A DNA stretch of 64,000 bases from Mobula hypostoma (Eukaryota): positions 131,938,001-132,002,000 of the forward strand of contig NC_086097.1 in assembly GCF_963921235.1 (NCBI RefSeq). The letters run 5' to 3'. Below the pieces are notes generated by a model. It worked only from the letters and a program-made list of their open reading frames with translations, did no database searches and was not told the DNA's origin. Within the stretch, counting starts at the first letter, position 1. The number at the start of each line of letters is the position of its first letter. Made by a program: the position numbers and the translations under genes. Shown here one piece after another: positions 12,465-64,000 of the stretch.

Positions 12465-12735
12465 GCTTACATTGAGGTACTGAGGTGATGAGGTTTGAGA
12501 GCTTCAGGTTCCTTGGAGTGACCCTCACCAACAGCCTGCCCTTGTTCAACCATTGACAAGAAAGCACAGCAGTACTTCTTCCACAGGGGGCTAAGTAAAT
12601 TTTGTATGTCCCATTTGACTCTCACCTGCTTTTACAGATGCAGCATAGAAAGCATACTAATTGGTATGGCTACTGCTCTGCCTGGGACTGCAATAAACTA
12701 CAGAAAGTTGTGGACATAACTCAGCACATCGTCCA
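12465..12735 (+). mobile_element. Rex1-type LINE fragment
   Basis: FRFLGV..WYGYCSAWDCNKLQKVVDITQHI remnant. Confidence 0.55.
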
Positions 12736-13320: not shown

Positions 13321-14119
13321 AGTACACTTTAATTCCAGAGTTTGTAATATCATTCTATTAATTAAAATTTCATTGCTCTAAACAGACAGAAGAATTTTGG
13401 AAAGTGATTACCTCTTTTCCTGCTAAATTGGCAATGTGATAATGCATGGGCATGTGAAGTTATAGATTTCACAAGAACCCCTATTTCAGGGCTTTTGTAT
13501 TGACTGGATTACTCACGTTCATTTTTCAAGGAGAGGTTTGCACTGTTCTCACTTGTCTTAATACGAGATATATTTTAGGGTGAGAATGAAAATGATTGAA
13601 CAGGTTAAAACCGGTATACAGCTTTTGAGAGGAAACTTTTGAAAGAACAATGCCAGGAATCTCATTATTCTCGTCTGATGTTTCTTGAAATTCCTCTGAA
13701 TTATCTCCCTCAATTGTGAAATTAAAAGAAAAAGAATAAACTGAAGAAAAGAAGTAAATTGCATTTTTATGGTATCTTTCATGACCTTAGTATTTTACAG
13801 CCGATGAATCACTTCTGTAAAGTTGGCCCATGTCGAATTAATAGGAATCCATTATTAGCCTTGAATAATGATTTGATAAAGGCATTTTGCAAATTGCAAA
13901 GTAATACCCACTTGCGTCTTTCACAAGAGAGGTGGGAAGACAGTGTTATTATAGCAAGAGCTTATAACAGCTGCTGTTATAATGATACCATCTGTAGCTA
14001 GCCATTGAATTTGGTACGCTCTGCAAAATCAAAGATGCTTGCTATAAGGAAAGGTTTAATGCACACTTAAAGTGTGATGTTTTAGTCCTGAATAGGAAGT
14101 GTCAACTTCATGTTATATA

Positions 14120-16914: not shown

Positions 16915-18975
16915 AGGCAGACATATCGGTACATTTAGGCCCTTCTAGTCGATGCTGAGCTATCTAAACTGCTTAGTCCCATCAACCTGCACCCGGGCCG
17001 TAGCCCTCCATTCCCCTGCCATCCATGTACCTATCCAAACTTCTCTTAAACTTTGAAATCGAGCTTGCATGCAACATTTGGGCTGGCAACTCATTCCACA
17101 CTCTCACAACCCTCTGAGTGAAGAAGTTTTCCCTCAAGTTCCCTTAAAGTTTTTACCTTTCACCCTGAACCCATTACCTCTAGTTGTAGTTCCACCCAAC
17201 CCCATGGAAAAAGCCTCCTTACATTTACCCTATCTATATCCCTCATAATTTTGTATACCTCCATCAAATCTCCCATCAATCTTCCACGTTTCAAGGAATA
17301 AAGTCCAAACCTATTCAACCTTTCCTTATAACTAAGGTCCTCCAGTCAGACAACATCCTTGTAAATTTTCCGTGTACTCTTTCAACCTCATTTATATCTT
17401 TCTTATAGGTAGGTGAGCAAAGTTTTACACAATGCTCCACCTTAGGTCTCACTAATATCTTATGCAACTTCAACATAACATCCCATCTCCTGTACTAAAT
17501 ACTTTGGTTTATGAAAGCCAGTATGTCAAAAGCTTTCCTTACAACCCTATCTACCTACACTTCCAATGAATTATGGACCTGTATTCCCAAATCCCTTTGT
17601 CCTACCGCACTCTTCAGTGTCCTATCATTCACTGTGTAGACCTATCCTGGTTGGTCCTACGGAAGTGCAACACCTTGCACTTGTCTGCAATAACTTTATC
17701 TGCCATTTTTCAGCACATTTTTTCAGCTGGTCCAGATCCCTCTGCAAGCTCTGATAGCCTTCCTCACTGTCCACTACACCCCCAGTCTTGGTGTCATCTG
17801 CAAATTTGCTGATCCAGTTGGCCACATTATCATCCAAATCATTGACATAGATGACAAACAACAATGGACCCACCACTGGTCCATGCAGCATACCACTATT
17901 CAGAGGCATCCAGTCAGAGAGGCAAACATTCTCTTTCATCTTCCACAAAGCCAATGTCTAATCAAATTTACTACTTCATTATGCATGCCAAACGACTGAA
18001 CCTTCTCCATCAACAGAAAGTCGCAAAGCAAGGAACGCTAAAGAACCCACTTAAAAAAATAAGACCAACCCCTCAGTGCCCACAGAGAAAGGGAAAAAAT
18101 ACTAAACAAATCATGCAAACAATAACAGCAAGCAACAACAACAGCATTCTGAACCAAATTCTCGGAGCAGCTCAGAGCAGATCCATACCCTCGGTATTCA
18201 GTTCATCATATTAGCGGGGCAAGTCATGGCAAAGTTCACAGACACATAGCATGGCAGCTGGAGGCAATCTCACACCCGTAGCGTTGCGGAGAGAGGAGTC
18301 CCTAGGCTATCTGGGCTGGCATTTAAATTGTCCGAACTGTGGTGAATCACTGTAGGGCCTGGATTTCAATGCCGGAGAAGCTGTTCTTTCCAAATTGGAT
18401 CAGTGCTTAGGATGATCCAACCTCGCCCGACTCTCGACACCCTGCTTTTCCAGTGTATCTGGAAAAGTCCATGCGGACAACATCCATTGCCTTGCCTTTA
18501 TCAATTTTCCTAGTAACTTCCTGAAAAAAAACACTATGAGATTGGTTAGACATGACGTACCATATTCAAAGCCATGTTGACTATCCAATAGTTACATATC
18601 TGGTCCCTTAGAATACCTTCCAATAACTTTTCCACTACCAATATCAGGCTCACCGGCCTTGAATTTCCTGGTTTATTTTTACAGCCTTTCTTAAACAGTG
18701 GAACAACATTAGCTATCCTCCAATCCTCCAGTACCTCACCTGTCCTTAAGGATGATTTAAATATCTCTGCTAGGGCGCCTGCAATTTCTACACTTGTCAC
18801 CCACAGGGTCCAAGAGAGCACTGTGTCAGGCCCTGGGGCTTTATTCACCCTAATTTGCCTTAAGTCAGCAAATACCTCCTCCTTTTTAATCTGTATAGTG
18901 TCCATGAATTTGATGTTACTTTGCTTCACTTTGATAGATTCTGTGTCTGTCCCTTGAGTAAATATAGATGCAAAA
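16915..18975 (-). mobile_element. CR1 LINE (RT to 3' end), disrupted, with a ~450-bp insert at about 18010-18460
   Basis: KAPGPD..EDWRIANVVPLFKKG..RPVSL, SQHGF..SCLTNLI and [22 protein letters not shown] are collinear across the insert. Confidence 0.85.
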
Positions 18976-19039: not shown

Positions 19040-19790
19040 AGACACAATAAATATATGGCCCTTCATGGTTATATCATATACCAACAGAGCAGAATCCAGC
19101 CATCCATTTCTGATTGTACAAGGAGCAGAGGAGGGGTTCTATAGACACAACCTTGTGAACCGTTGAGAATAATCATGGCGGAGGTGTTGCTGCCAATCCT
19201 TACTGATTGCGGTCTGTTGGCCAGGAAGTCAACAATCCAATTTCAGAGAGATGCATTAACTCTGGGGTCCAGAATTTGGTGGTCAGTTTGTTTGGATTTG
19301 TAATACTAAAAGGTAGAGTTGTGGTCAATAAACAATAGCTTAATGTGGATGTCTACTGCCCAAATGCTCCAAAGATAAGCATAAGCTAGGGAGATTGTGT
19401 CCACTGTAGACTTGATTGAGTAGTAGGCGAATTGCAATGGGTGAATGTTGTCTGGAAGGCTGGAGTTGATGTATGCCTTTACCAGACTTTCAAAGCACTT
19501 CATGATGATGGATACCAAAGCCACTGGGCAGTAGTCATTTAGGCATGTTGGTTTGTTTTTCTAGGTGCTAGGATGATAGTGGTTTTCTTAAATCAAGTGG
19601 GAATTTCAAATTGAAGCAGGAAAAGGTTAAGGATGTCTGCAAATACCCCCACCAGTTGATCTGCACAGGATCTAAGAACACAGTCAGAGACACCATCTGG
19701 ATCAAATGCTTTCCATGAGGTCAGTCTGTGGAAGAATGATCTTATGTACACAATGGTGACTATGAGTTCAGGTGTATTGGAGATCTTCAG
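19040..19790 (-). mobile_element. Rex1-type LINE RT fragment
   Basis: KAFDPDGV..VLRSCADQLVGVFADILNL and PVALVSIIMKCFESLV..PLQFAY..LLFID. Confidence 0.8.
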
Positions 19791-21779: not shown

Positions 21780-24480
21780 GAAACATAGTACCATAGAAAT
21801 CTACAGTGCATTACAAGCTCTTTGGCACAAAATGTTGTGCTGATCATGAAACGCTAGAAACTGCCTAGAATTTCCCTACTGCACAGCCCTCCATTTTTCA
21901 TGTAGCTATCCAAGAGTTTCTTAAAAGATCCTACTGTACCCGCCTCTATCACTTTCACTGACAGCGCATTCCATGTACCCACCACGCTCTGTGTGAAAAA
22001 CTTACCTCTGTCATCCCAAAAGTTCTGAACTTAAAGAGGGGAAACTTTGAAGGTATGAGACGTGAATTAGCGAAGATAGACTGGCAAATGACACTTAAAG
22101 GATTGACGGTGGATATGCAATGGCAAGCATTTAAAGGGTGCATGGATGAACTACAACAATTGTTCATCCCAGTTTGGCAAAAGAATAAATCAAGGAAGGT
22201 AGTGCACCCGTGGCTGACAAGAGAAATTAGGGATAGTATCAATTCCAAAGAAGAAGCATACAAATTAGCCAGAGAAAGTGGCTCACCTGAGGACTGGGAG
22301 AAATTCAGAGTTCAGCAGAGGAGGACAAAGGGCTTAATTAGGAAGGGGAAAAAAGATTATGAGAGAAAACTGGCAGGGAACATAAAAACTGACTGTAAAA
22401 GCTTTTATAGATATGTAAAAAGGAGAAGACTGGTAAAGACAAATGTAGGTCCCCTACAGACAGAAACAGGTGAATTGATTATGGGGAGCAAGGACATGGC
22501 AGACCAATTGAATATTACTTTGGTTCTGTCTTCACTAAGGAGGACATAAATAATCTTCCAGAAATAGTAGGGGACAGAGGGTCCAGTGAGATGGAGGAAC
22601 TGAGCGAAATGCTTGTTAGTAGGGAAGTGGTGTTAGGTAAATTGAAGGGATTGAAGGCAGATAAATCCCCAGGGCCAGATAATCTGCATCCTAGAGTGCT
22701 TAAGGAAGTAGCCCAAGAAATAATGGATGCATTAGTGATAATTTTTCAAAACTCGTTAGATTCTGGACTAGTTCCTGAGGATTGGAGGGTGGCTAATGTA
22801 ACCCCACTTTTTAAAAAAGGAGGGAGAGAGAAACCGGGGAATTATAGACCGGTTAGCCTAACGTCGGTGGTGGGGAAACTGCTGGAGTCAGTTATCAAAG
22901 ATGTGATAACAACACATTTGGAAAGCGGTGAAATCATCGGACAAAGTCAGCATGGATTTGTGAAAGGAAAATCATGTCTGACGAATCTCATAGAAGTTTT
23001 TGAGGATGTAACTAGTAGAGTGGATAGGGGAGAACCAGTGGATGTGGTATATTTGGATTTTCAAAAGGCTTTTGACAAGGTCCCACACGGGAGATTAGTG
23101 GGCAAACTTAAAGCACAAGGTATTGGGGGTAAGGTATTGATGTGGATAGAGAATTGGTTAGCAGACAGGAAGCAAAGAGTGGGAATAAAGGGGACCTTTT
23201 CAGAATGGCAGGCGGTGACTAGTGGGGTACCGCAAGGCTCAGTGCTGGGACCCCAGTTGTTTACAATATATATTAATGACTTGGATGAGGGAATTAAATG
23301 CAGCATCTCCAAGTTTGCGGATGACACGAAGCTGGGTGGCAGTGTTAGCTGTGAGGAGGATGCAGGGTGACTTGGATAGGTTGGGTGAGTGGGCAAATTC
23401 ATGGCAGATGCAATTTAATGTGGATAAATGTGAAGTTATCCACTTTGGTGGCAAAAATAGGAAAACAGATTATTATCTGAATGGTGGCCGATTAGGAAAA
23501 GGGGAGGTGCAACGAGACCTGGGTGTCATTATACACCAGTCATTGAAAGTGGGCATGCGGGTACAGCAGGCGGTGAAAAAGGCGAATGGTATGCTGGCAT
23601 TTATAGCAAGAGGATTCGAGTACAGGAGCAGGGAGGTACTACTGCAGTTGTACAAGGCCTTGGTGAGACCACACCTGGAGTATTGTGTGCAGTTTTGGTC
23701 CCCTAATCTGAGGAAAGACATCCTTCCATAGAGGGAGTACAAAGAAGGTTCACCAGATTGATTCCTGGGATGGCAAGACTTTCATATGAAGAAAGACTGG
23801 ATGAACTGGGCTTGTACTCGTTGGCATTTAGAAGATTGAGGGGGGATCTGATTGAAACGTACAAAATCCTAAAGGGATTGGACAGGCTAGATGCAGGAAG
23901 ATTGTTCCCGATGTTGGGGAAGTCCAGAACAAGGGGTCACAGTTTGAGGATAAAGGGGAAGCCTTTTAGGACTGAGATTAGGAAAAACTTCCTCACACAG
24001 AGTGGTGAATATGTGGAATTCTCTGCCACAGGAAACAGTTGAGGCCAGTTCATTGGCTATATTTAAGAGGGAGTTAGATATGGCCCTTGTGGCTATGGGG
24101 ATCAGGGGATATGGAGGGAAGGCTGGTGCAGGGTTCTGAGTTGGATGATCAGCCATGATCATAATAAATGGCGGTGCAGGCTTGAAGGGCTGAATGGCCT
24201 ACTCCTGCACCTATTTTCTATGTTTCTATGTTTCTACCCCCTTTCTACCTACTTCCACGCACCTTAAAACTGTGCCTCCTTGTGATAACCACTTCAGCTC
24301 TGGGAAAAAGTCTCTGGCTATCCACATGATTAATGCCTCTCATCATCTTATACACCTCTATCAGGTCACCTGTCACCTTCTGTCACTCCAAGGAGGAAAA
24401 GCCATGTTCACTCAACCTATTCTCGTAAGGCATGTTCTCCAATCCAAGCAACATCCTTGTAAATCTCCTCTGCACTCTCT
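21780..24480 (-). mobile_element. Old CR1 3' fragment split by the younger CR1 at 22018-24236
   Basis: AAAAACTTACCTCTGTCATCCC at the left resumes as CCCC..CACCTTAAAACTGTGCC at the right. Confidence 0.65.
22018..24236 (+). mobile_element. Young 5'-truncated CR1 LINE (ORF2 RT plus 3' UTR) with a few frameshifts
   Basis: [56 protein letters not shown] and KFADDTK motifs. (TTTCTATG)n tail. Frameshifts near 22513, 23362, 23725 and 23998. Confidence 0.95.
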
Positions 24481-25855: not shown

Positions 25856-25929
25856 CTGTTAGTCAGTGAGTCATAAAGTCATACAGAATGGTAAAAGGCC
25901 CTTTGGCCCAACTTCTTCAAGCTGACTGC

Positions 25930-27066
25930 CTGCCACATCTGCTCTCAGGATGAGGTTTTTCATTCCAGGCTAATGAGATGTCCTCCTTCTTCTAAGAAAG
26001 GGGCTTCCGTTCCTCCACCATCAATGCTACCCTCACCTGCATCTTTTCCATTTCATGCATGTCCGCCCTCATCCCATCCACCTACCGCCACACCAGTGAC
26101 AGGATTCCTCTTGTCCTCACCTACCACACCATTAGTCTTCGCATCCAGCACATAATTCTCCGTTACTTCCGCCATCTCCAACAGGATCCCACCACAAAGC
26201 ACATCTTTCCCTCCACACTCAATTTCCACTTTCCACAGGGATTGCTCCTTACATGACTCGCTTGTCTACTTGTCCCTCTCTACTGATCTCCCTTCTGGTA
26301 CCTACTCTTGCAAGCAAAACAAGTGCCTTACCTGCCCCCACACCTCCTCCATCACTATCATTCAGGGCCCCAAACAGTTTCCACCGATGAAGCGACTCTT
26401 CATATGTATGTCTGTTGGGGTCATCTATAGTATCTGGTGTGGCCTCCTGTATATCCAAGAGACCCGACATAGATTGGGAGACTGCTTCACTGAGCACCTA
26501 CGTTCCATCCAGAAAAAGCGGGATCTCCCAGTTCGATTCCACATCCCATTCCCATTCTGACATGTCAGTCCATGGCCTCCTCTATTGTTGTGATGAGGCC
26601 ATACTCAGGTTGGAGGAGCAACTCCTTACATTCCTTATATTCCTGGATAGTCTCCAACCTGATGGCATGTACATCAAATTTCTTGAATTTTCAGTAACTA
26701 TCCCCCAACCCTTCACCATTCCTCGTTTATGTCTCCCTCTCTCACATTTTCTGCCCATCACTTCCTTCTGGTTCTCCTCCTCTTTTCCTTTCTTCCATGG
26801 TCTTCTATCCTCTCCTATCAGATTCCCCCTCCTCCAGCCCTTTATCTCTTTCATCAATCAACTTCCCTGCTCTTAACTTCACCCCTCCCCTTCCCAGTTT
26901 CACCTATCACCTACCGCCTTGTACTTCTTCCTTCCCTCCCCCACTTTCTTACTCTAACATCTCATCTTTCTTTCCAGTCCCCATGAAGGGCCTCACCCAA
27001 AACGTAAACTGTTTACTCTTTTCCATAGATGCTGCCTGGCCCAATGAGTTCCTCCAGCATTTTGTG
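25930..27066 (+). mobile_element. Penelope-like element 3' half (RT thumb remnant, GIY-YIG endonuclease, terminal repeat)
   Basis: DRIPLVLTYH, then GTYSCKQNKCLTCPH..VIYSIWCGLLYIQETRHRLGDCFTEHLRSI..DLPV. Pyrimidine-rich tract and a degenerate hammerhead at about 26975-27011. Confidence 0.9.
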
Positions 27067-27480
27067 AGGTTGGACGGGCTTGGACCTTTTACCTTGGAGC
27101 AGAAGAGACTGACAGGTGATCTTACAGATGTGTCCAAATCTTGAGGGGCATAGATATAGATGGATTGAATGCACTCAATCTTTTCCCCAGGGTTAGGGAA
27201 GAAAGAACATTTACAATAAGAGTTGAAATATTCAAGAAGAGCTTGAGGGGTAAATTTTTTACACAGTGGTGAGTATGTGGAATGAGCTGCCAGAGGAAGA
27301 CACTGAGGCAGGTACAGTTACAACTTTTAAACGCAATTGGACAGCCACATGGATCGGATGAATTTGAGGAATGAGCCTTAGACGGGCAAATAGAAATGGT
27401 TTGGACAGGAATATTTTTGGCATGGACCTTTCGAGCCGAAGGGCCTATTTCTGCATTGTATGATTCTGTAACTCTATGAT
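27067..27480 (+). mobile_element. CR1 3' fragment
   Basis: LDGLGPFTLEQKRLTGDL remnant and CTATGA tail. Confidence 0.65.
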
Positions 27481-30182: not shown

Positions 30183-30759
30183 AATGCAATTAGTAGCTGA
30201 TTTTGTCTGCTAGACTTCGGTTCCAGAATGTATTTCTAAGCTCTGTCACTGGATTTTGTCTCTGCTACTCTGCTCCTGAGTTCATTAGTCCAGACTGACT
30301 ACAGTTCAATGCTGATGGGGTCCCACATTGCTAGAAGTAGCATGTTTAGAACTAGTGCAATCATGCTCCTGTCTGCTCTTTCAAATAGATGTAGAAAATC
30401 ACATTCATTAATTTGAAGAATTGAGGAGTTATCCTTGGTGCCCCAGTCAATCCTTCTGTTCAACCTTCATCACTAATACAAATTCTTTCTTTATTGACAC
30501 ATTTCTGTGTATGGGAAGCAGATCACCTGGTGCATTAAAAAGATGCTGGAAGATCTCAGTGGGTCAGGCAGTATCTGTGGAGGGAAATGGACAGTTGATG
30601 TTTCAGGTCAAGTCTTTTCATCCGGAACCTATATAAGAAACAGGACTGTGCTGGTCCTGTTCTAGCCCCACTAAACTTATCTCGTCATACCTCCATCTTG
30701 ACAAAAGAATTGGGCATTTCTCTGTATCCTGTTCTCTTTCATGTGGCCATGGCCATTAA

Positions 30760-38465: not shown

Positions 38466-38950
38466 TACCTGTTAAACAGGCTTGAGGAACAACATGAACA
38501 CAAGAGATTCTGCAGATGCTGGAAGTCTGGAGAACTTCCGATATATAAAAAAAGTGGAGGCAAAAACTGGCAGGTAATATGTGAGGAGGGTAATACGCAG
38601 ATGGGGGAAGAGTGTAGTGGCAATGATGCCAGAAGTTGGGAGGGGATAGGTGGAAGTGAAGAACAACTGAAGATAATGGAATTTAATAGGAGATGAAGCC
38701 TTTCCATGATCCCATTTTCCCTCATTCCTCCTCTGCCAATCAACTCATTCCTCCCCTCAACCCCCCATAGTCACCTGGAGCTATCTATCACCTGCCAACT
38801 CTTGCTTGAGCCCTTTTTCTACTGGCTATCTCCCCTCTGTTCTTTCAGTACAGATGAAGGATTTCAAGGATGTCAGCTGATCATTTCCCTCCAGGCATTC
38901 TGTCTGACCCCCTGAGCTCCTCCAGCTCTTTGTGTTGCCAAAGATTTCAC
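38466..38950. mobile_element. Degenerate inverted pair of Penelope terminal fragments
   Basis: ACACAAGAGATTCTGCAGATGCTGGA arm (-), then a pyrimidine-rich arm ending CAGATGAAGG..CTGAGCTCCTCCAGC (+). Confidence 0.55.
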
Positions 38951-41515: not shown

Positions 41516-41810
41516 TTTTATGCCTTATGAGGATAGGTTGATCGAGCTAGGGCTTTTCTCTTTGGAGTGAAGGAGGATGAGAGGTGACCTGATAGTGGTG
41601 TACAAGATGAAAATATACATAAATAGAGTGGACAGCCAGAAGCATTTTCCAAGAGTGGAAATGGCTAATGTGAGGGGGCATAATTTTAAAGTGACTGGAG
41701 TAAGGTATAGCGGGCAATCAGAGGTAAGTTTTTTTACACAGAGTGGTGAGTGTGTAGAATATTTTGTCGGGGTGGTAGACCTATTCTGGTGTTATCTTCC
41801 ATGGCAAGGT

Positions 41811-41964
41811 ATAAACACAAGAGATTCAGCAGATGCTGGAAATCCAGAGCAATGCACACAGTGTCCTGATGAAGGGCCTCGGCCTGAAAAACTGACTGTT
41901 TATTCATTTCCACCGATGCTGCCTGACTTGCTGATCTCCTCTAGCATTTTGTCTGTGCGTGGCT
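41811..41964. mobile_element. Mini Penelope insertion (short inverted arm plus terminal repeat) with 14-bp TSD
   Basis: TTCCATGGCAAGGT at 41797-41810 and TTCCAAGGCAAGGT at 41965-41978. Contains CTGATGA..GAAA. Confidence 0.8.
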
Positions 41965-42509
41965 TTCCAAGGCAAGGTGTTAGGTTGAGCCTGTTATCAC
42001 TCCTGTGTTAACTGCACGATGTGGCTGCACGCAATGTTAAGTACTTGCTATTCCCCCTGAATAACTTCTGTGCCCTGCCTAACATGGTGAATGAAATGAA
42101 AGAAACACAAAATGTGTGACAACGAATCATTGGGATTCACAGTGGGTGACCAAACCACAGATGTAACAAAAGATAATCTGGAACAATATTAGCTTTGCAA
42201 AATTGCAGCAGCTACCAAAGCTGCTGGTGCCATCTGTACCCACTCAAGCTGCGGGACAGATGTCCCATCAAACCCCTATCACTTCACATTTTAAGTTTAT
42301 TTTAAAGATAATTTTCATTGTGATTTTGCACACCCGTATTTGTTTCAGTCCTCAAATAACTGAAGTCTCATCAAGTGGATGGTGTGAAGCAAATCTGATG
42401 ATCAAACAACTTACATGTGTGTGCTGCCCAGGTAACATTTTCCATGTGGACACATGGGACTGCAGGTGCTGGAACCTGGATCAAAAATATTTATTACGTC
42501 GTGATATAA

Positions 42510-43726: not shown

Positions 43727-44018
43727 AACACAAAATAATCTGCAGATTCTGGGGTCAAAGCAACACTCACAACATGCTGGAGGAACTCAGCAGGTCGGGC
43801 AGCATCCATGGAAAAGATGGGTCGACGCTTCGGGCCGGAACCCTTTGTCAGGACTGTAGAGGGAAGGGGCAGAGGCCCTGTAAAGAAGGTGGGGGGAGGG
43901 TGGGAAGGAGAAGGTTGGCAGATTCCAGGTGAAAAACCAGTAAGGGGAAAGATCAAGGGGTTGGGGAGGGGAGGCAGGGAGGTGATAGGCTGGAAAGGTG
44001 AAGAAAGAATAGGGGAAA
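43727..44018 (-). mobile_element. Penelope terminal repeat (same subfamily as 46594-47172)
   Basis: Highly similar to 46594-46885. Hammerhead core mutated (CTGACAA, GAAG). Confidence 0.85.
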
Positions 44019-44333
44019 CCTGCCTCTCCACCAATCTTCATTGCAAACTTGGCAACAAAGCCATCTATTCCATCATCTAAACCATCTATATACAGCATAA
44101 AAAGAAATGGTCCCAGCACCGACCCCTGCGAAACACCACTAGTCACTGGCAGCCAACCAGAAAAGGCTCCTTTTATTCCCACTTGCTGCCTTCTTCCAAC
44201 CAGCCACCATGCCAGTAACTTTCTTGTAATACCATGGGCCCTTAACTTGGTAAGCAGATTCATGTGTGGCACCTTGCCAAAGGCCTTCTGAAAGTCCAAA
44301 TGTACAACAACCACTGCATCCCTTTATCTACCC
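44019..44333 (-). mobile_element. Internal CR1 RT fragment abutting the Penelope repeat
   Basis: VVHLDFQKAFGKVPH..VTSGVSQGSVLGP..FVAKFA. Confidence 0.85.
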
Positions 44334-46261: not shown

Positions 46262-46593
46262 GGTTAGAGGGATATGAGCCGAACTTGGGAAATGGAACTA
46301 GCTTAGTTTGGCCCCTTGGTTGGTGTGAATGAGTTGGGCCAAAAGGCCTGTTTCCATCCTGTTGAACTCTATGACTTAATGACACTATGACTCTGTCTGG
46401 CAAATATCATCTAGCGCAGTCATTATATAATTCATAAACTATTATTTCCTTCCAATCAGTTCCTTCCTCAAATCCCAATATTTTCAAAAAGTTAAGACTT
46501 TCAAGAAAACTTTAGACAATAATCTCATCTTTTCCTCAGTTAGCCCCAGAGGAAGGTGTTGAGGAAATTCAGCCATTTTGCCTTTTATGGGAA

Positions 46594-47172
46594 ACACAAA
46601 ATACTCTGCAGATGCTGGGGTCAAAGCAACACTCACAACATGCTGGAGGAGCTCAGCAGGTCGGGCAGTATCCGTGGAAATGATCAGTCAACGTTTCGGG
46701 CTGGAACCCTTCATCAGGACTGAAGAGGGAAGGGGCAGAGGCCCTATAAAGAAGGTGGGGAGAGGGTGGGAAGGAGAAGGCTGGTAGGTGCCAGGTGAAA
46801 AACCAGTAAGGGGAAAGATCAAGGGGTGGGGGAGGCAAAGCAGGGAGGGAATAGGCAGGAAAGGTGAAGAAGGAATAGGGGAAAACACAATGGGTAGTAG
46901 AAGGAGGCGGAACCACGAGCGAGGTGATAGGAAGCTGGGGGAGGGGGAGGGAATTACCGAAAGTTGGAGAATTCAATGTTCATGCCAAGGGGCTGGAGAC
47001 TACCCAGATGGTATATGAGGTGTTGCTCCTCCAACCTGAGTTTAGCCTCATCATGGCAGTAGAGGAGGCCATGTATGGACATATCCGAATGGAAATGTGA
47101 AGCAGAGTTGAAGTGGGCGGCAACTGGGAGATTCTGTCTGTTGTGGCGGACGGAGTGGATGTGCTCGACGAA
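46594..47172 (-). mobile_element. 5'-truncated Penelope-like element with 14-bp TSD
   Basis: GIY-YIG C-terminal remnant (DMSIHGLLYCHDEAKLRLEEQHLIY) plus terminal repeat. GCCTTTTATGGGAA at 46580-46593 and GCCTCTTATGGGAA at 47173-47186. Confidence 0.9.
46685..46722 (-). ncRNA. Minimal type-I hammerhead ribozyme motif (intact core)
   Basis: Minus strand reads CAGUC-CUGAUGA-A-GGGU(UCCA)GCCC-GAAA-CG-UU-GACUG: 5-bp stem I, stem II and palindromic AACGUU helix III. Confidence 0.8.
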
Positions 47173-47489
47173 GCCTCTTATGGGAACATGTGAACACTAT
47201 CTCTACCAATCCACATTGATTCACCTTTCCTCCCCACTCTTAATAACAAAAAAACTATCAGACTCTGAATTAATATTTTCAATTTATTTCCGTATCAGAT
47301 TTCAGATCTCCAATATTCTTTGTGTGAATTTTTTTTTAAAAAGGCAGAAACTCTCAGCAGGTCAAGCAGCGTCGGTGAAATGAGAAACAGTTAATGCTTC
47401 AGGTCTCAAATGAAGAGAAAAGCAAGTTAGTTTTCAGTTTCAAAGAAGATGGGGGAGGGATGGGTAGAACAAAGAGATTATCTCTGATA

Positions 47490-47661: not shown

Positions 47662-48930
47662 GTGGAAACCAAACTGACTAATGTCGCAAGTAGATGCAGA
47701 TTATGCTTCTTTGTCTATGTTATATGTTGATTATAGCAGGGTTATGGGATATGCTTAGTGATTCACCTATACTAATAGAGAGGATAAAAATTGAAAATAG
47801 ATCACTGTCAGAAATGATTAATTTTGACACAGGCAGAAATAAACAGTGAGCCACCAAAAGTGTGAGAATCTGATATTTGTTCCTTGCGTCAAAAAACATT
47901 CCCAGCATTGGTCTAATAACCTTGTTCTAATCTTGAATAGTTCCACATTAAGAAGAAATAAAGTCTAAACATCAAAATTTACCTCATGAGAACTTGCACC
48001 TTAGTGTCTGCCTGTACTGCACTTCCTCTGTAACTGTTACACTTTATTCTGCATTCTATTATTGTTTTCCCCCGTGCGCTGTAGGAATGAAATGGTCTGT
48101 ATGGATACTTGCAAAATAAATTTTTTACATGTACTCTGGTGGATGTAACAATAATAAACCAATTTACCGATTCACTAGTTTGCACTTTTCGGAAACTCTT
48201 CTGGATACCTTAGTTTCTGTCCATCTTTCCCTTAATGGATGAGATCTTAAGTAATACAATAAGAAGCAGACTATTTGGCTAAATTCAACCAAGAGGTAGC
48301 CCAATTTGCTTGGACTTCATCCATATCCTTCTAAACCTTTCCTATCCATATCTATATATAGTGAACTTATTTTATCAGATCTGCTGACATTGAACTGCAG
48401 GTATGTTTCATCTCAATCTAAAGTGCATGACACTGGATAGTGGCAGGATCTTACCTGACATAACGCTAGCCCATGAGAAGGCCAGAACAAGCATTGTGTC
48501 CTTACTTTGCAAGCCAACAGATATATCAGTTATTTTGAGTGCCCCTGAATTCAGTAAACATTAAAAAAAACTATTAATAAAATGTAAGTTATAATTTTCA
48601 AATCACTAAAAATCAAATCACAAGTATGATTTAAAAAAACTTAAAAGTATTAGAACTAACTCAATTAAATAGCAAAATATATTCTACCATTTTACCTTGC
48701 TGCCATTCCTCTTTAGCTGAAAATTCCTGGGCCAGGTTCACCATCCAAGGTCCAATGTAGAGACATAATTGTGTACTTGCTGCGACATCAGAGCCAGCTG
48801 GTTTGGGACTAGCACGTTTAATCCTGAATTATTGGGAAATGGGCAGTTCTGTTTGGAAATGCTGGCATTTTGGTGTAGAGAGCATATGGCATAACCCAGC
48901 AAGTTTCAAACTGTATGTTTCAATGGCTTG

Positions 48931-49166
48931 CAACACATATAAAAATTGCTGGTGAATGCAGCAGGCCAGGCAGCATCTATAGGAAGAGGTACAATCGACG
49001 TTTCGGGCCGAGACCTTTCGTCTTGACAGACCATCCTGATGAAGAGTCTCAGCCTGAAACGTCGGCTGTACCTCTTCCTATAGATGTTGCCTGGCCTGCT
49101 GCGTTCACCAGCAATTTTTATATGTGTTCCTTGAAATTCCAGCATCTGCAGATTTCCTCCTGTTTG
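48931..49166. mobile_element. Palindromic mini Penelope insertion with 15-bp TSD
   Basis: About 95-bp inverted arms with back-to-back hammerhead motifs. TGTTTCAATGGCTTG at 48916-48930 and 49167-49181. Confidence 0.9.
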
Positions 49167-49294
49167 TGTTTCAATGGCTTGATTAGATTGCTCCTTTATA
49201 TTTCTCTGCAAGCTTCACCCAGGCAATTTAACCAGGTAGGGTCTCATTTTAAAGAATCTATGCTCAAACACCCCCAAACAGTGTAGATTATTTG

Positions 49295-54188: not shown

Positions 54189-54397
54189 TAAACACAAGAG
54201 ACTTCCGCAGATGCTGGAAATCCAGAACAACACACACAAAAGGCTGGAGGAGCTCAGAAGGTCAGGCATTATCGATGGAGAGGAATAAACAGTTGACATG
54301 ATGAGGCGAGACCCTTCAACTCAAAACATTAACTGTTTATTCCTCTCCATTGATGCTGCCTGATCTGCTGAGTTCCTCCAGCATTTTGTGTGTGTTC
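54189..54397. mobile_element. Palindromic mini Penelope insertion
   Basis: AACACACACAAAAGGCTGGAGGAGCTCAG..GGAGAGGAATAAACAGTT left arm and AACTGTTTATTCCTCTCC..GTGTGTGTT right arm. Confidence 0.8.
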
Positions 54398-55145: not shown

Positions 55146-56215
55146 TCAGAATCAGAATCAGGTTTATTATCACCAGCATGTGTTGTGAAATTTGTTAACT
55201 TAGCAGCAGCAGTTCAATGCAATACATAATATAGAAGACAAGGAAAAAGTAATTTAATAATAATAAATAAATAAATAAATCGATTACAGTATACATATAT
55301 TGAATATATTAAAAATCATGCAAAAACCAGAAATAATATATATTAAATAAGTGAGGGCGTGTTCACGGGTTCACAGCAATTTAGGAAATGGAAGAAGCTG
55401 TCTCTGAATTGCTGAGTGTGTGCCTTCAGGCTTCTGTACCTCCTACCTGATGGTAACAGTGAGAAAAGGGTCCCTTAATAATGGACACTGCCTTTCTGAG
55501 ACACCACTCCTTGAAGATGTTCTGGGTACCCAAGATGGAGCCGACTAAATTTACAACCCTCTTCAGCTTCTTTTGGTCCTGTGCAGTAGACCTCCATGCC
55601 AGACAGTGATTCAGCCTGTCAGAATGCTCTCCACGGTACATCTATAGAAGTTTTTTAGTGTATTTGTTGACATGCCAAATCTCTTCAAATGCCTAATAAA
55701 GTACAGTCACTGTTTTGCCTTCTTTATAGCTGCATCGATATGTTGGGACCAGGTTAGGTCTTCAGAGATCTTGACACCCAGGAACTTGAAAATGCCCACT
55801 CTCTCCACTTCTGATCCCTCTACGAGGATTGGTATGTGTTCCTTCGCCTTACCCTTCCTGAAATCCACAATCAGCTCTTTCGTCTTACTGACATTGAGTG
55901 CAAGATTGTTGCTGTAACACCACTCCACCAGTTGGAACATCTCACTCCTGTACACCCTCTCGTCTCCATCTGAGATTCCAGCAAAAATGGTTGTATCATC
56001 AGCAAATTTATAGATGGTATTTGAGCTACGCCTAGCCACACAGTCATGTGTATATAGAGATTAGAGCAGTGGGCTAAGCACACACCCCAGAGGTGCGCCA
56101 GTGTTGATCGTCAGCGAGGAGGAGATATTATCACCAATCCACACAGATTGTGGTCTTCCAGTTAGGAAGTCGAGGATCCAATTGCAGAGGGAGGTACAGA
56201 GGCCTTTATTCTGTA
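55146..56215 (-). mobile_element. Rex1-type LINE 3' 1.1 kb, relatively well preserved
   Basis: [43 protein letters not shown] and a (CTGATT)n tail. Confidence 0.9.
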
Positions 56216-62140: not shown

Positions 62141-62985
62141 TGTTTTGCAATTTCCCAATAAGTTTATAACAGGCAAGGTTAAAATAATAATCATCTTTAT
62201 TATATATAATGGTGTTTCTTTATACAAACAGTTTTAGTGTCAAGTTCTGGTCCTCCTGAAAAGATTTCCAATGCATTAACTAAAATGCCTCTTCTGAGGC
62301 CTTTAAAGCTTATAAACAACCCTACCCTGTTAAAGTGTCCTGTGTCTCAATACACTTCTCCCTCCACCTTCACCCCCACACTTCCAATGTTTCTGCTGCA
62401 GGATGAGAAACTGTTTGTGGTCTTAGTTACTGGATAGATGCCAGAATAGTCAACCAGGTAGGTAGACCAACGAGTTCATTTCTATTTATGAGTCATAGCA
62501 GATGTAAACATTTATACCATCTGTAAGCTTCACCAGGAGACATAACAAGAGGTGAAGCCCAACTTCAAGTCTGTCTTTGATGATGTTTATTCAGAAGTCT
62601 TCCAAAAAAAGATCTAGATGATAGCGATCTGCCTTGCTCAAATAAGATGTATCCTCCAATAATTGCTTTAATTGATGTGTTAGTCAACTTGTTTTATTTA
62701 ATTAAACCGATGTTTGAGACTATGTGGACAATGTCGTACAGCAATAATTGCTGTACATATTGGCACACTGTCAGCAAGCAATGGGAAGGATGTGACAATG
62801 TTACCCCACACATGGCAATTTAGGTATAATTGGGCAGATAACAATATTTAGAAAGAAATCAACAACGAGGCAAATAAATAATACTAGGCCAATACGAGAA
62901 AATCTGCAGGTGCTGGAAATTCAAGCAACACACACAAAATGCTGGTGGAACGCAGCAGGCCAGGCAGCATCTATAGGAAGAAGTA

Positions 62986-63023
62986 CAGTTGACGTTTCAG
63001 GCCGAGACCCTTCGTCAGGACTA
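62986..63023 (-). ncRNA. Minimal hammerhead motif, core intact, one stem I mismatch
   Basis: UAGUC-CUGACGA-A-GGGUCUCGGCCU-GAAA-CG-UC-AACUG. Confidence 0.6.
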
Positions 63024-63880
63024 ACTGAAAGAAGAGACAGTAAGAGATTTGAAAGTGGGAGGGGGAGGGGGAGATCTGAAATGATAGGAGAAGACAGGAG
63101 GGGGAGGGATGAAGCTAAGAGCTGGAAAGTTGATTGGCAAAGGGGATACAGAGTTGGAGAGGGGGAGGATCATGGGACGGGAGGCCTAGGGAGAAAGAAA
63201 GGAGGGAGGGGAGCCCAGAGGAAGATGGAGAACAGGCAAGGAGTGATTGTGAGAGAGACAGAGAGAGAAGAAAAAAAAGAGGGGGAAATAAAAATAAATA
63301 AGCGGTGGGTAAGAAGGGGAGGAGGGGCATTAACAGAAATCAATGTTCATGCCATCAGGTTGGAGGCTACCCAGACGGAATATAAGGTGTTGTTCCTCCA
63401 ACCTGAGTGTGGCTTCATCTTTACAGTAGGGGAGGCCATGGATTGACATATCAGAATGGGAATAGGACTTGGAATTAAAATGTGTGGCCACTGGGAGATC
63501 CTGTTTTCTCTGGTGGACAGAGCGTAGGTGTTCAGCGAAATGGTCTTCCAATCTATGTCTCTAACTTCCGTTAATGCCCCTCTTCCCCTTCTTACCCCAT
63601 CCCTTATTTATTTTTATTTCTCACCCTTTTTTTCCTTCTCTCTCTGTCCCTCTCACAATCACTGCTTGCCTGTTCTCCATCTTCCTCTGGGCTCCCCTCC
63701 CCCTTTCTTTCTCCCTCGCCCTCCCGTCCCATGATCCTCCCCCTTCTCCAACTCTGTATCCCTTTTGCCAAACAACTTTCCAGCTGTTAGCCTCATCCCT
63801 CCCCCTCCTGTCTTCTCCTATCATTTTGGATCTCCACTCCCCCTCCCACTTTCAAATCTCTTACTGTCTCTTCTTTCAGT

Positions 63881-63918
63881 TAGTCCTGATGAAGGGTCTT
63901 GGCCTGAAATATCGACTG
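63881..63918 (+). ncRNA. Minimal type-I hammerhead motif (intact core)
   Basis: UAGUC-CUGAUGA-A-GGGUCUUGGCCU-GAAA-UA-UC-GACUG. Confidence 0.7.
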
Positions 63919-64000
63919 TACTTCTTCCTATAGATGCTGCCTGGCCTGTTGTGTTCCACCAGCATTTTGTGTGTGTTGCTTGAATACTAGGTCAATGTTT

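Follow-up and report, generated by a model that had tools for sequence, protein, structure and literature searches.

The sequence at 46685..46722 on the minus strand is best read as a minimal hammerhead ribozyme motif of a Penelope-like element (PLE), carried by a solo, decaying relic and inert in vivo at this copy; we put the probability of this reading at about 85%. The window is the whole stretch of DNA analysed, 64,000 nucleotides of the Mobula hypostoma genome, and all coordinates are positions within it. By every feature that can be tested on sequence, the focal motif is a PLE minimal hammerhead. The evidence comes from the anatomy of the motif, the boundaries and age of the insertion that carries it, and the state of related copies in the window.

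Anatomy of the focal hammerhead

The motif comprises the following parts.

46685..46722, minus strand: minimal type-I hammerhead motif, 38 bases, core and stems read from the sequence
46722-46718 with 46689-46685, minus strand: stem I, 5 perfect pairs
46717-46711, minus strand: core C3-A9 (C3-U4-G5-A6-U7-G8-A9)
46710, minus strand: extra A after A9, unpaired, between 9 and 10.1
46709-46706 with 46701-46698, minus strand: stem II, 4 bp, G10.1-C11.1 first, 4-nt loop
46697-46695, minus strand: G12-A13-A14
46694-46691, minus strand: helix III palindrome ACGU, loopless
46690, minus strand: U17, predicted cut between 46690 and 46689

The first-pass annotation described this copy as having all core nucleotides and a perfect 5-bp stem I. 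Both observations were confirmed on the minus strand from 46722 to 46685, where 11 of 11 hammerhead bases are present (CUGANGA, GAAA and UH in type-I order, with U as H17) and stem I has its five pairs plus a sixth, outer U-A pair. By the rules for the core, the copy does look catalytically complete, as had been proposed. The ACGU palindrome has no loop, and helix III can be formed only between two motifs; the motif accordingly appears to be of the dimer-dependent kind to which it was first assigned.

The palindrome AACGUU, originally taken as a mark of intactness, did not hold up in that role. The conserved palindrome is ACGU, the family triplet is GUC, and U17 replaces C17. Position 17, which forms a CpG with G1.1, is C in seven and T in four of 13 aligned copies. 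On this alignment, AACGUU is a by-product of CpG decay at position 17, letting A14 pair with U17. A U at this position costs roughly an order of magnitude in cleavage. GUU is listed among the cleavable triplets, with GUC and GUA the fastest (PMC3138052).

The extra A between positions 9 and 10.1 is an A in 13 of 13 aligned copies. The G10.1-C11.1 pair is intact in the focal copy; across the 12 scorable copies it is G-C in 4 and G-U in 5, because 11.1 is a CpG base. Of the 13 aligned copies, the focal one alone combines a fully canonical core with G10.1-C11.1, ACGU, and a complete set of stems.

The focal insertion and its empty site

The motif lies inside a short insertion with defined ends.

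46594..47172, minus strand: whole insertion, a solo 5'-truncated Penelope-like element of 579 bp, defined by duplication, empty site, and length
46580..46593, plus strand: target-site duplication, left copy, 14 bp with one mismatch
47173..47186, plus strand: target-site duplication, right copy, 14 bp, present once in the empty-site contig
46954..47172, minus strand: ORF end, the last 72 codons and a TAA stop (46956-46954), C-terminal end of a GIY-YIG endonuclease
46723..46953, minus strand: 3' UTR of 231 nt, pyrimidine-rich, from stop codon to hammerhead
46594..46684, minus strand: 3' terminal part beyond the motif, including a ~30-nt tail that is missing from inverted partner copies

The motif begins 231 nt past the stop of the GIY-YIG-type ORF, and the predicted cut lies 96 nt before the element end, which bears out the original assignment to the 3' end of a Penelope-like element. 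Direct repeats of the focal type were found at 0 of 400 random anchors in a chance control. The insertion carries sequence on both sides of the cut site, and its template RNA was therefore uncut or religated. Head-to-tail tandem units, a retrozyme trait, are absent: the focal copy stands solo between its duplications, and the close pairs in the window are inverted.

In a 556-nt contig from another organism (run X4), 46380-46579 runs straight into 47173-47340; over 368 positions it differs from the window at 22 letters and has 2 gaps (~6% diverged). This is a single contig with a depth of 5.8, in a run whose kind is not recorded, and it may represent a paralogous segment. If the contig is the orthologous site, the insertion would be younger than the ~6%-divergence split and not conserved. 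The empty site in this organism is the reason for regarding the copy as young. At 10 of the 27 in-element positions listed, the focal letter differs from at least 95% of the aligned X4 depth; by this measure, the focal copy carries at least 10 private substitutions.

The carrier element

Homologs of the focal ORF product were all from rays (Hypanus and Mobula), with nine matches among 16 candidates. The focal ORF end shares 75%–85% identity with the C-terminal ends of three ray proteins, P0001, P0004, and P0005, and the 85% value applies to P0001 over the focal fragment. All three match Pfam GIY-YIG below the cut-off (E value of 8e-4 for P0001). Pfam detected no reverse transcriptase (RT) domain in the three proteins, and RT-like motifs in P0001 were read by eye. 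An RT followed by a C-terminal GIY-YIG in one ORF is thus seen through relatives (P0001) and not in the focal fragment, whose 80-aa frame had no relevant Pfam match. A PDB sequence search with P0004 returned nothing relevant.

A cysteine linker (C-x4-C-xx-C) occurs in P0004, P0005, and a window relic at 26156-26557 (~26240), with C-x3-C-xx-C in P0001. The focal copy is truncated downstream of this CX2-5CxxC linker, which is known here via relatives. In Craig et al. 2021 (PMC8557442), a CX2-5CxxC linker between RT and endonuclease is given for the Neptune and Nematis clades. The carrier is probably a Penelope-like element of Neptune type, an assignment based on a linker motif that Nematis has as well. 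Further traits of endonuclease-bearing (EN+) PLEs are present in the family: 5' truncation, an inverted 5' copy, an optional tail (30–40 nt in such elements, ~30 nt here), and target-site duplication.

The ORF end of this element also occurs in several predicted ray protein isoforms that bear host-gene names (P0001, P0002, and P0006-P0009), which suggests exonization or annotation artifacts.

Family copies in the window

The motif had been reported to recur at 12 positions. A profile built from eight window copies gave 25 matches at E ≤ 1 and none on the reversed window. Seventeen of the 25 overlap the hammerhead at E < 1e-3, with every one of the 12 listed sites among them, so the recurrence stands as that of one repeat family, at a density of about one motif-bearing site per 4 kb in the window. 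The full motif does not recur to the same extent. All 11 core bases are kept at four of the 12 sites, 46721(-), 49033(+), 63022(-), and 63882(+), and the core plus all stems at only two, 46721(-) and 63882(+). A single insertion event accounts for both 49000 and 49032, and another for both 62986 and 63881, so that the 12 sites represent 10 insertions.

The bare core pattern had 12 matches against a shuffle mean of 7.5, with 7 of 100 shuffles reaching 12, which is hardly above chance. A descriptor with stems found three distinct sites, where controls averaged 0.125 per 64 kb; two are family copies with a loopless helix III, 46717(-) and 63886(+), and the third, 46539(-), is unrelated. The search with type-I hammerhead models that was proposed as a check came back empty: Rfam had nothing at the gathering score in the window, and no hammerhead model reached E ≤ 10 in 46500-46900. 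None of the 25 profile matches begins at model positions 33–36, as insertions starting at the cut site would, although local alignment starts are not true boundaries. A metagenome contig scan with the downstream-flank pattern, meant to gather copies free of any bias toward an intact core, had 0 matches.

The copies and insertions that bear on the interpretation are as follows.

43728..44018, minus strand: sister copy of the same subfamily as the focal copy, 28 differences in 291 columns, hammerhead broken
25895..27071, plus strand: most extensive relic of the family observed in the window, with an approximate 5' limit, ORF frame-broken
63881-63918, plus strand: second near-complete motif, C17 kept, G10.1-U11.1 wobble, ATAT palindrome
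48931..49166: head-to-head inverted insertion (49000-, 49032+), both hammerheads defective
48916-48930 and 49167-49181: 15-bp duplications of the 48931..49166 insertion
62894..63982: head-to-head inverted insertion (62986-, 63881+), plus copy near-complete
62880-62893 and 63983-63996: 14-bp duplications of the 62894..63982 insertion

The sister copy has G8>A, A15.1>G, and two stem I mismatches. Same-strand neighbors of the focal copy, 2.3 and 2.8 kb away, have broken cores. The longest relic carries the C-x4-C-xx-C linker, the GIY-YIG region, and the UTR, followed by a broken hammerhead at ~26976. The second near-complete motif has a double CpG transition from ACGU to AUAU, which is still palindromic. 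Older copies at 38847(+) and 42864(+) share an A at core position 4, and 30626(-) has a G. The upstream UTRs of 38847(+) and 42864(+) are alike, which hints at the spread of a subfamily with a non-canonical U4, in copies too few to set this apart from decay.

Target-site duplications of 14–15 bp were found at four of 14 insertions, with a 13-bp candidate at 30626 and none at nine. Where present (46580-46593, 62880-62893, 48916-48930, and 41797-41810, with their partners), they are consistently 14–15 bp long. Each inverted pair consists of a main copy with a ~30-nt tail and a tail-less inverted copy in head-to-head orientation, an arrangement described for PLEs (PMC8557442, PMC3846280). It had been proposed that the region, if transcribed, would carry potentially self-cleaving RNA sites on both strands. 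Motifs do occur on both strands, but the close pairs lie on opposite strands, and one transcript therefore reads only one hammerhead, folded against its antisense twin. The predicted fold of 48930-49135 is such a hairpin, at -153 to -161 kcal/mol, and opposite-strand pairs folded in this way cannot be expected to serve as a dimer.

Other small insertions have similar architecture. The very short insertion at 41797-41978, with 14-bp duplications, consists of a copy starting at the hammerhead 5' stem and, head-to-head with it, a piece of 3' tail in inverted orientation (41814-41860). Small inverted insertions at 48931-49166 and 54190-54396 have junctions at or inside the hammerhead and would form long double-stranded RNA hairpins from either strand (predicted at -114 to -161 kcal/mol).

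Conservation and CpG decay

Conservation was counted on 13 aligned window copies; five partial or weak copies were aligned and excluded. The expectation that the core is better conserved than its flank was not clearly supported, with majority-base matches at 123 of 143 core positions and 461 of 574 tail positions (P = 0.15). Omission of G12, a CpG base, gives 115 of 130 for the core against the same 461 of 574 (P = 0.03). This second result counts against the reading we prefer, but it is weakened because the copies are non-independent, the profile used to select them covers the core, and the tail mixes subfamilies. G12 is described as the general base (PMC8495972). It is kept in eight of 13 copies, the same rate as at the other seven CpG positions (P = 1.0); across the eight motif CpG positions, the majority base is kept in 6–9 of 12–13 copies.

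The focal copy itself has G>A at the loop II CpG. Its change at N7 is probably C>T; the sister copy has a C there (43855), together with G8>A. Among the positions listed for X4, three fall inside the motif, all in loop II. Stem covariation among the 13 decayed window copies was 0.239, with no excess over shuffled values (0.233). Stem cells pair in 80% of cases against 20%–39% with slid partners, a contrast that is partly circular, as the structure was derived from the same sequences. Together, these counts are what neutral decay after insertion would predict, with any constraint acting on source elements. The focal copy has probably kept its core because it is young.

Folding and dimer models

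Folding energies omit Mg2+ and tertiary contacts. In the monomer model, stems I and II form and core G5-G8 pairs with C15.2-U17, with a predicted mispairing probability of 0.6–0.7 for the motif alone and 0.4–0.55 in flanking context. The fold z-score of the focal motif is -1.67. For the focal homodimer, a 6-bp form with A14:U17 is predicted to be 2.6 kcal/mol more stable than the active 4-bp form (-21.9 vs -19.3). For two focal motifs, the active double hammerhead is predicted to be less stable than a pair of monomers by 2.9 kcal/mol and than the best dimer by 8.0 kcal/mol. When the focal motif was modeled with each of three minus-strand neighbors, the predicted active form was 4.4–7.9 kcal/mol above two monomers.

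Host context and transcription

No host exon was identified in the window, which may be part of a long intron. Pfam searches of 253 frames (mostly non-repeat, ≥55 aa) yielded retroelement RT and a few weak matches, all of the latter below the cut-off except ALKBH8_N. This match, at 12522-12716(+), has an E value of 5e-5, just above the cut-off. The ALKBH8_N model often matches LINE C-termini, and the frame is therefore probably not a host exon. Twenty-two of 31 splice-scored candidate exons were searched against Pfam, with three weak matches, all below the cut-off. No homolog was found for the best non-repeat, splice-flanked open frame, 13553-13738(-), of 62 aa.

Other retroelements are present. 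LINE-type RT relics, which we take to be CR1-like, match Pfam RVT_1 at 21962-24042(+), 43790-44323(-), 55710-56060(-), 17628-17957(-), and 19309-19560(-); the 43790-44323(-) frame lies directly against the sister PLE copy at the 5' end of the latter. Positions 1-1250 are GC-rich and contain a broken integrase-like frame and, after it, an LTR-like end; by eye, the segment looks like an LTR retrotransposon relic. Three frames from this segment had no match in Pfam.

No sequencing run recorded as RNA contained the locus. Family sequence is abundant in all four runs aligned, of seven listed, with 24,072 contigs in X4 and 3309, 1197, and 4590 in three runs guessed to be RNA, which may hold DNA and whose family abundance is not locus-specific. 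The unique flanks of the focal copy are uncovered in these three runs, which speaks neither for nor against transcription, since their species relation is uncertain and their contigs drop sequence. Depth at the cut-site bin drops about threefold in the three guessed-RNA runs versus 0.72-fold in X4. We do not read this as a sign of cleavage: parts of an element cannot be ranked by contig depth, the organisms differ, and no pile-up of ends was listed.

Interpretation and alternatives

The reading we prefer has the following steps. The family would be a highly amplified ray Penelope-like retrotransposon with a hammerhead ~230 nt after its stop codon. By analogy with known systems, an active parent would place two motifs on one transcript through a partial tandem, paired ACGU palindromes would allow the 5' half of each motif to cut the GUC site of the other, and mutual cutting would probably free or process the element RNA. 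A lone motif is predicted to fold into an inactive rod, with core G5-G8 paired with C15.2-N17. The focal copy is one 5'-truncated product of reverse transcription, inserted with a 14-bp duplication; it has since decayed, and its changes at N7, in loop II, and at position 17 are likely CpG transitions.

The focal copy is most likely inert because it is not part of a tandem with a promoter, lacks an intact partner on its own strand, and carries U17. Cervera and De la Pena 2014 (PMC4209133) saw no activity from single minimal motifs in vitro and weak activity from dimers, and a review that cites Lunse et al. 2016 agrees on this monomer and dimer behavior (PMC6765202). On the other side, the core, G10.1-C11.1, and both stems are intact and GUU is cleavable (PMC3138052). 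An engineered tandem dimer of the focal motif might show slow cleavage in vitro.

An incidental working cleavage site, to which we give roughly one chance in ten, is unlikely. Minus-strand read-through would let helix III pair in cis or in trans with another copy, either with a partner cutting the focal GUU or with the focal 5' half cutting the GUC of a neighbor, such as 48992(-), which has a dead core 5' half but still offers a GUC and a stem I 3' strand able to pair with the focal one. The complete focal core, the 17 motif-overlapping sites within 64 kb, and the abundance of the family in three runs guessed to be RNA (maybe DNA, and not locus-specific) are consistent with such a site, as is the dimer cutting reported for the class (PMC4209133; review PMC6765202). 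Against it, pairing would amount to just 5+4+5 bp across 2.3–2.8 kb, the 48992 copy is predicted to be trapped by its antisense twin in a hairpin of -153 to -161 kcal/mol, every modeled heterodimer is unfavorable, and U17 would favor A14:U17 mispairing. Designed dimers also cut weakly (PMC4209133).

A broader version of this idea, which we consider more doubtful still, is that half-broken same-strand copies in long ray pre-mRNAs complement each other as "split" ribozymes, giving dispersed, low-level cleavage of nascent RNA. An intact 5' half, for example that of the focal copy, would cut the intact GUC of a core-dead copy, and the population would be held in check by the off-fold (G5-G8 with 15.2-17) and by CpG decay of G12, helix III, and the cut site.

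It is very improbable that the motif is a domesticated regulatory ribozyme, similar to those of amniote introns and held intact by selection. Domesticated intronic hammerheads exist (PMC6155905), and the focal copy is the only fully canonical one of the 13 aligned, but the site is empty in a ~6%-diverged genome (one contig), CpG-type changes lie inside the focal motif, and chance survival of young copies is evident from another, independent copy in the window that is also near-complete. Least probable of all is a repeat end that resembles a hammerhead by chance: although Rfam had no match, the 13 window copies had no covariation above shuffles, the fold z-score was only -1.67, and the bare core pattern was near chance, three of four PLE minimal hammerhead features beyond the core are present at the place expected in a PLE, and stems pair at 80% versus 20%–39% with slid partners (partly circular).

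Relation to known systems

The decaying PLE relic that we favor agrees in most respects with the minimal hammerheads described in PMC4209133. Shared features are the type-I form, full core, unpaired base between 9 and 10.1, G10.1-C11.1, short helix I, palindromic 15.2-16.2 without loop 3, and location at the PLE 3' end. Most motifs there are solo, from truncated copies, and some pairs lie on opposite strands; in the window, too, motifs are mostly solo and from truncated copies, and close pairs are on opposite strands. Helix II is 4 bp here, in contrast to 7–8 bp in Schistosoma, the host is a cartilaginous fish, a group not named in the passages of PMC4209133 that were compared, and the focal copy has U17.

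The carrier resembles the Neptune-clade EN+ PLEs of PMC8557442 in its C-terminal GIY-YIG, cysteine linker, 5' truncation, inverted 5' partners, ~30-nt tail on one copy, and duplications. The duplications are 14–15 bp long, compared with 8–10 bp in the rotifer PLE examples of PMC3846280. Non-LTR retrozymes (10.64898/2026.07.22.740005) likewise have PLE-derived type-I hammerheads, and one chondrichthyan genome is reported among them. Here, unlike in retrozymes, there is no head-to-tail tandem and the focal copy is solo and retains coding sequence; on the sequence arrangement, without a tandem, it is not a retrozyme. The amniote intronic hammerheads of RECK, CTCL, and DTNB (PMC6155905) share a type-I motif and retroelement origin. 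Those are conserved at orthologous sites, whereas a close relative lacks the insertion at the focal site and the search for a host gene found none; judged by that empty site (one contig), the focal motif is not a conserved intronic ribozyme.

In a literature search, we found no paper devoted to PLE hammerheads in rays or sharks; subscription papers were mostly beyond its reach, and no priority is claimed. The motif class, the dimer model, and the solo scatter from truncated copies were already published in 2014, and the locus adds little there. Its value is as a clear illustration: the insertion boundaries are exact, the duplication measures 14 bp, a relative has the empty site, and there is evidence that copies decay neutrally. 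Intact partial-tandem elements would be better cleavage substrates than this solo U17 copy, and a genome with many young copies would be a good place to ask whether PLE minimal hammerheads cut in vivo.
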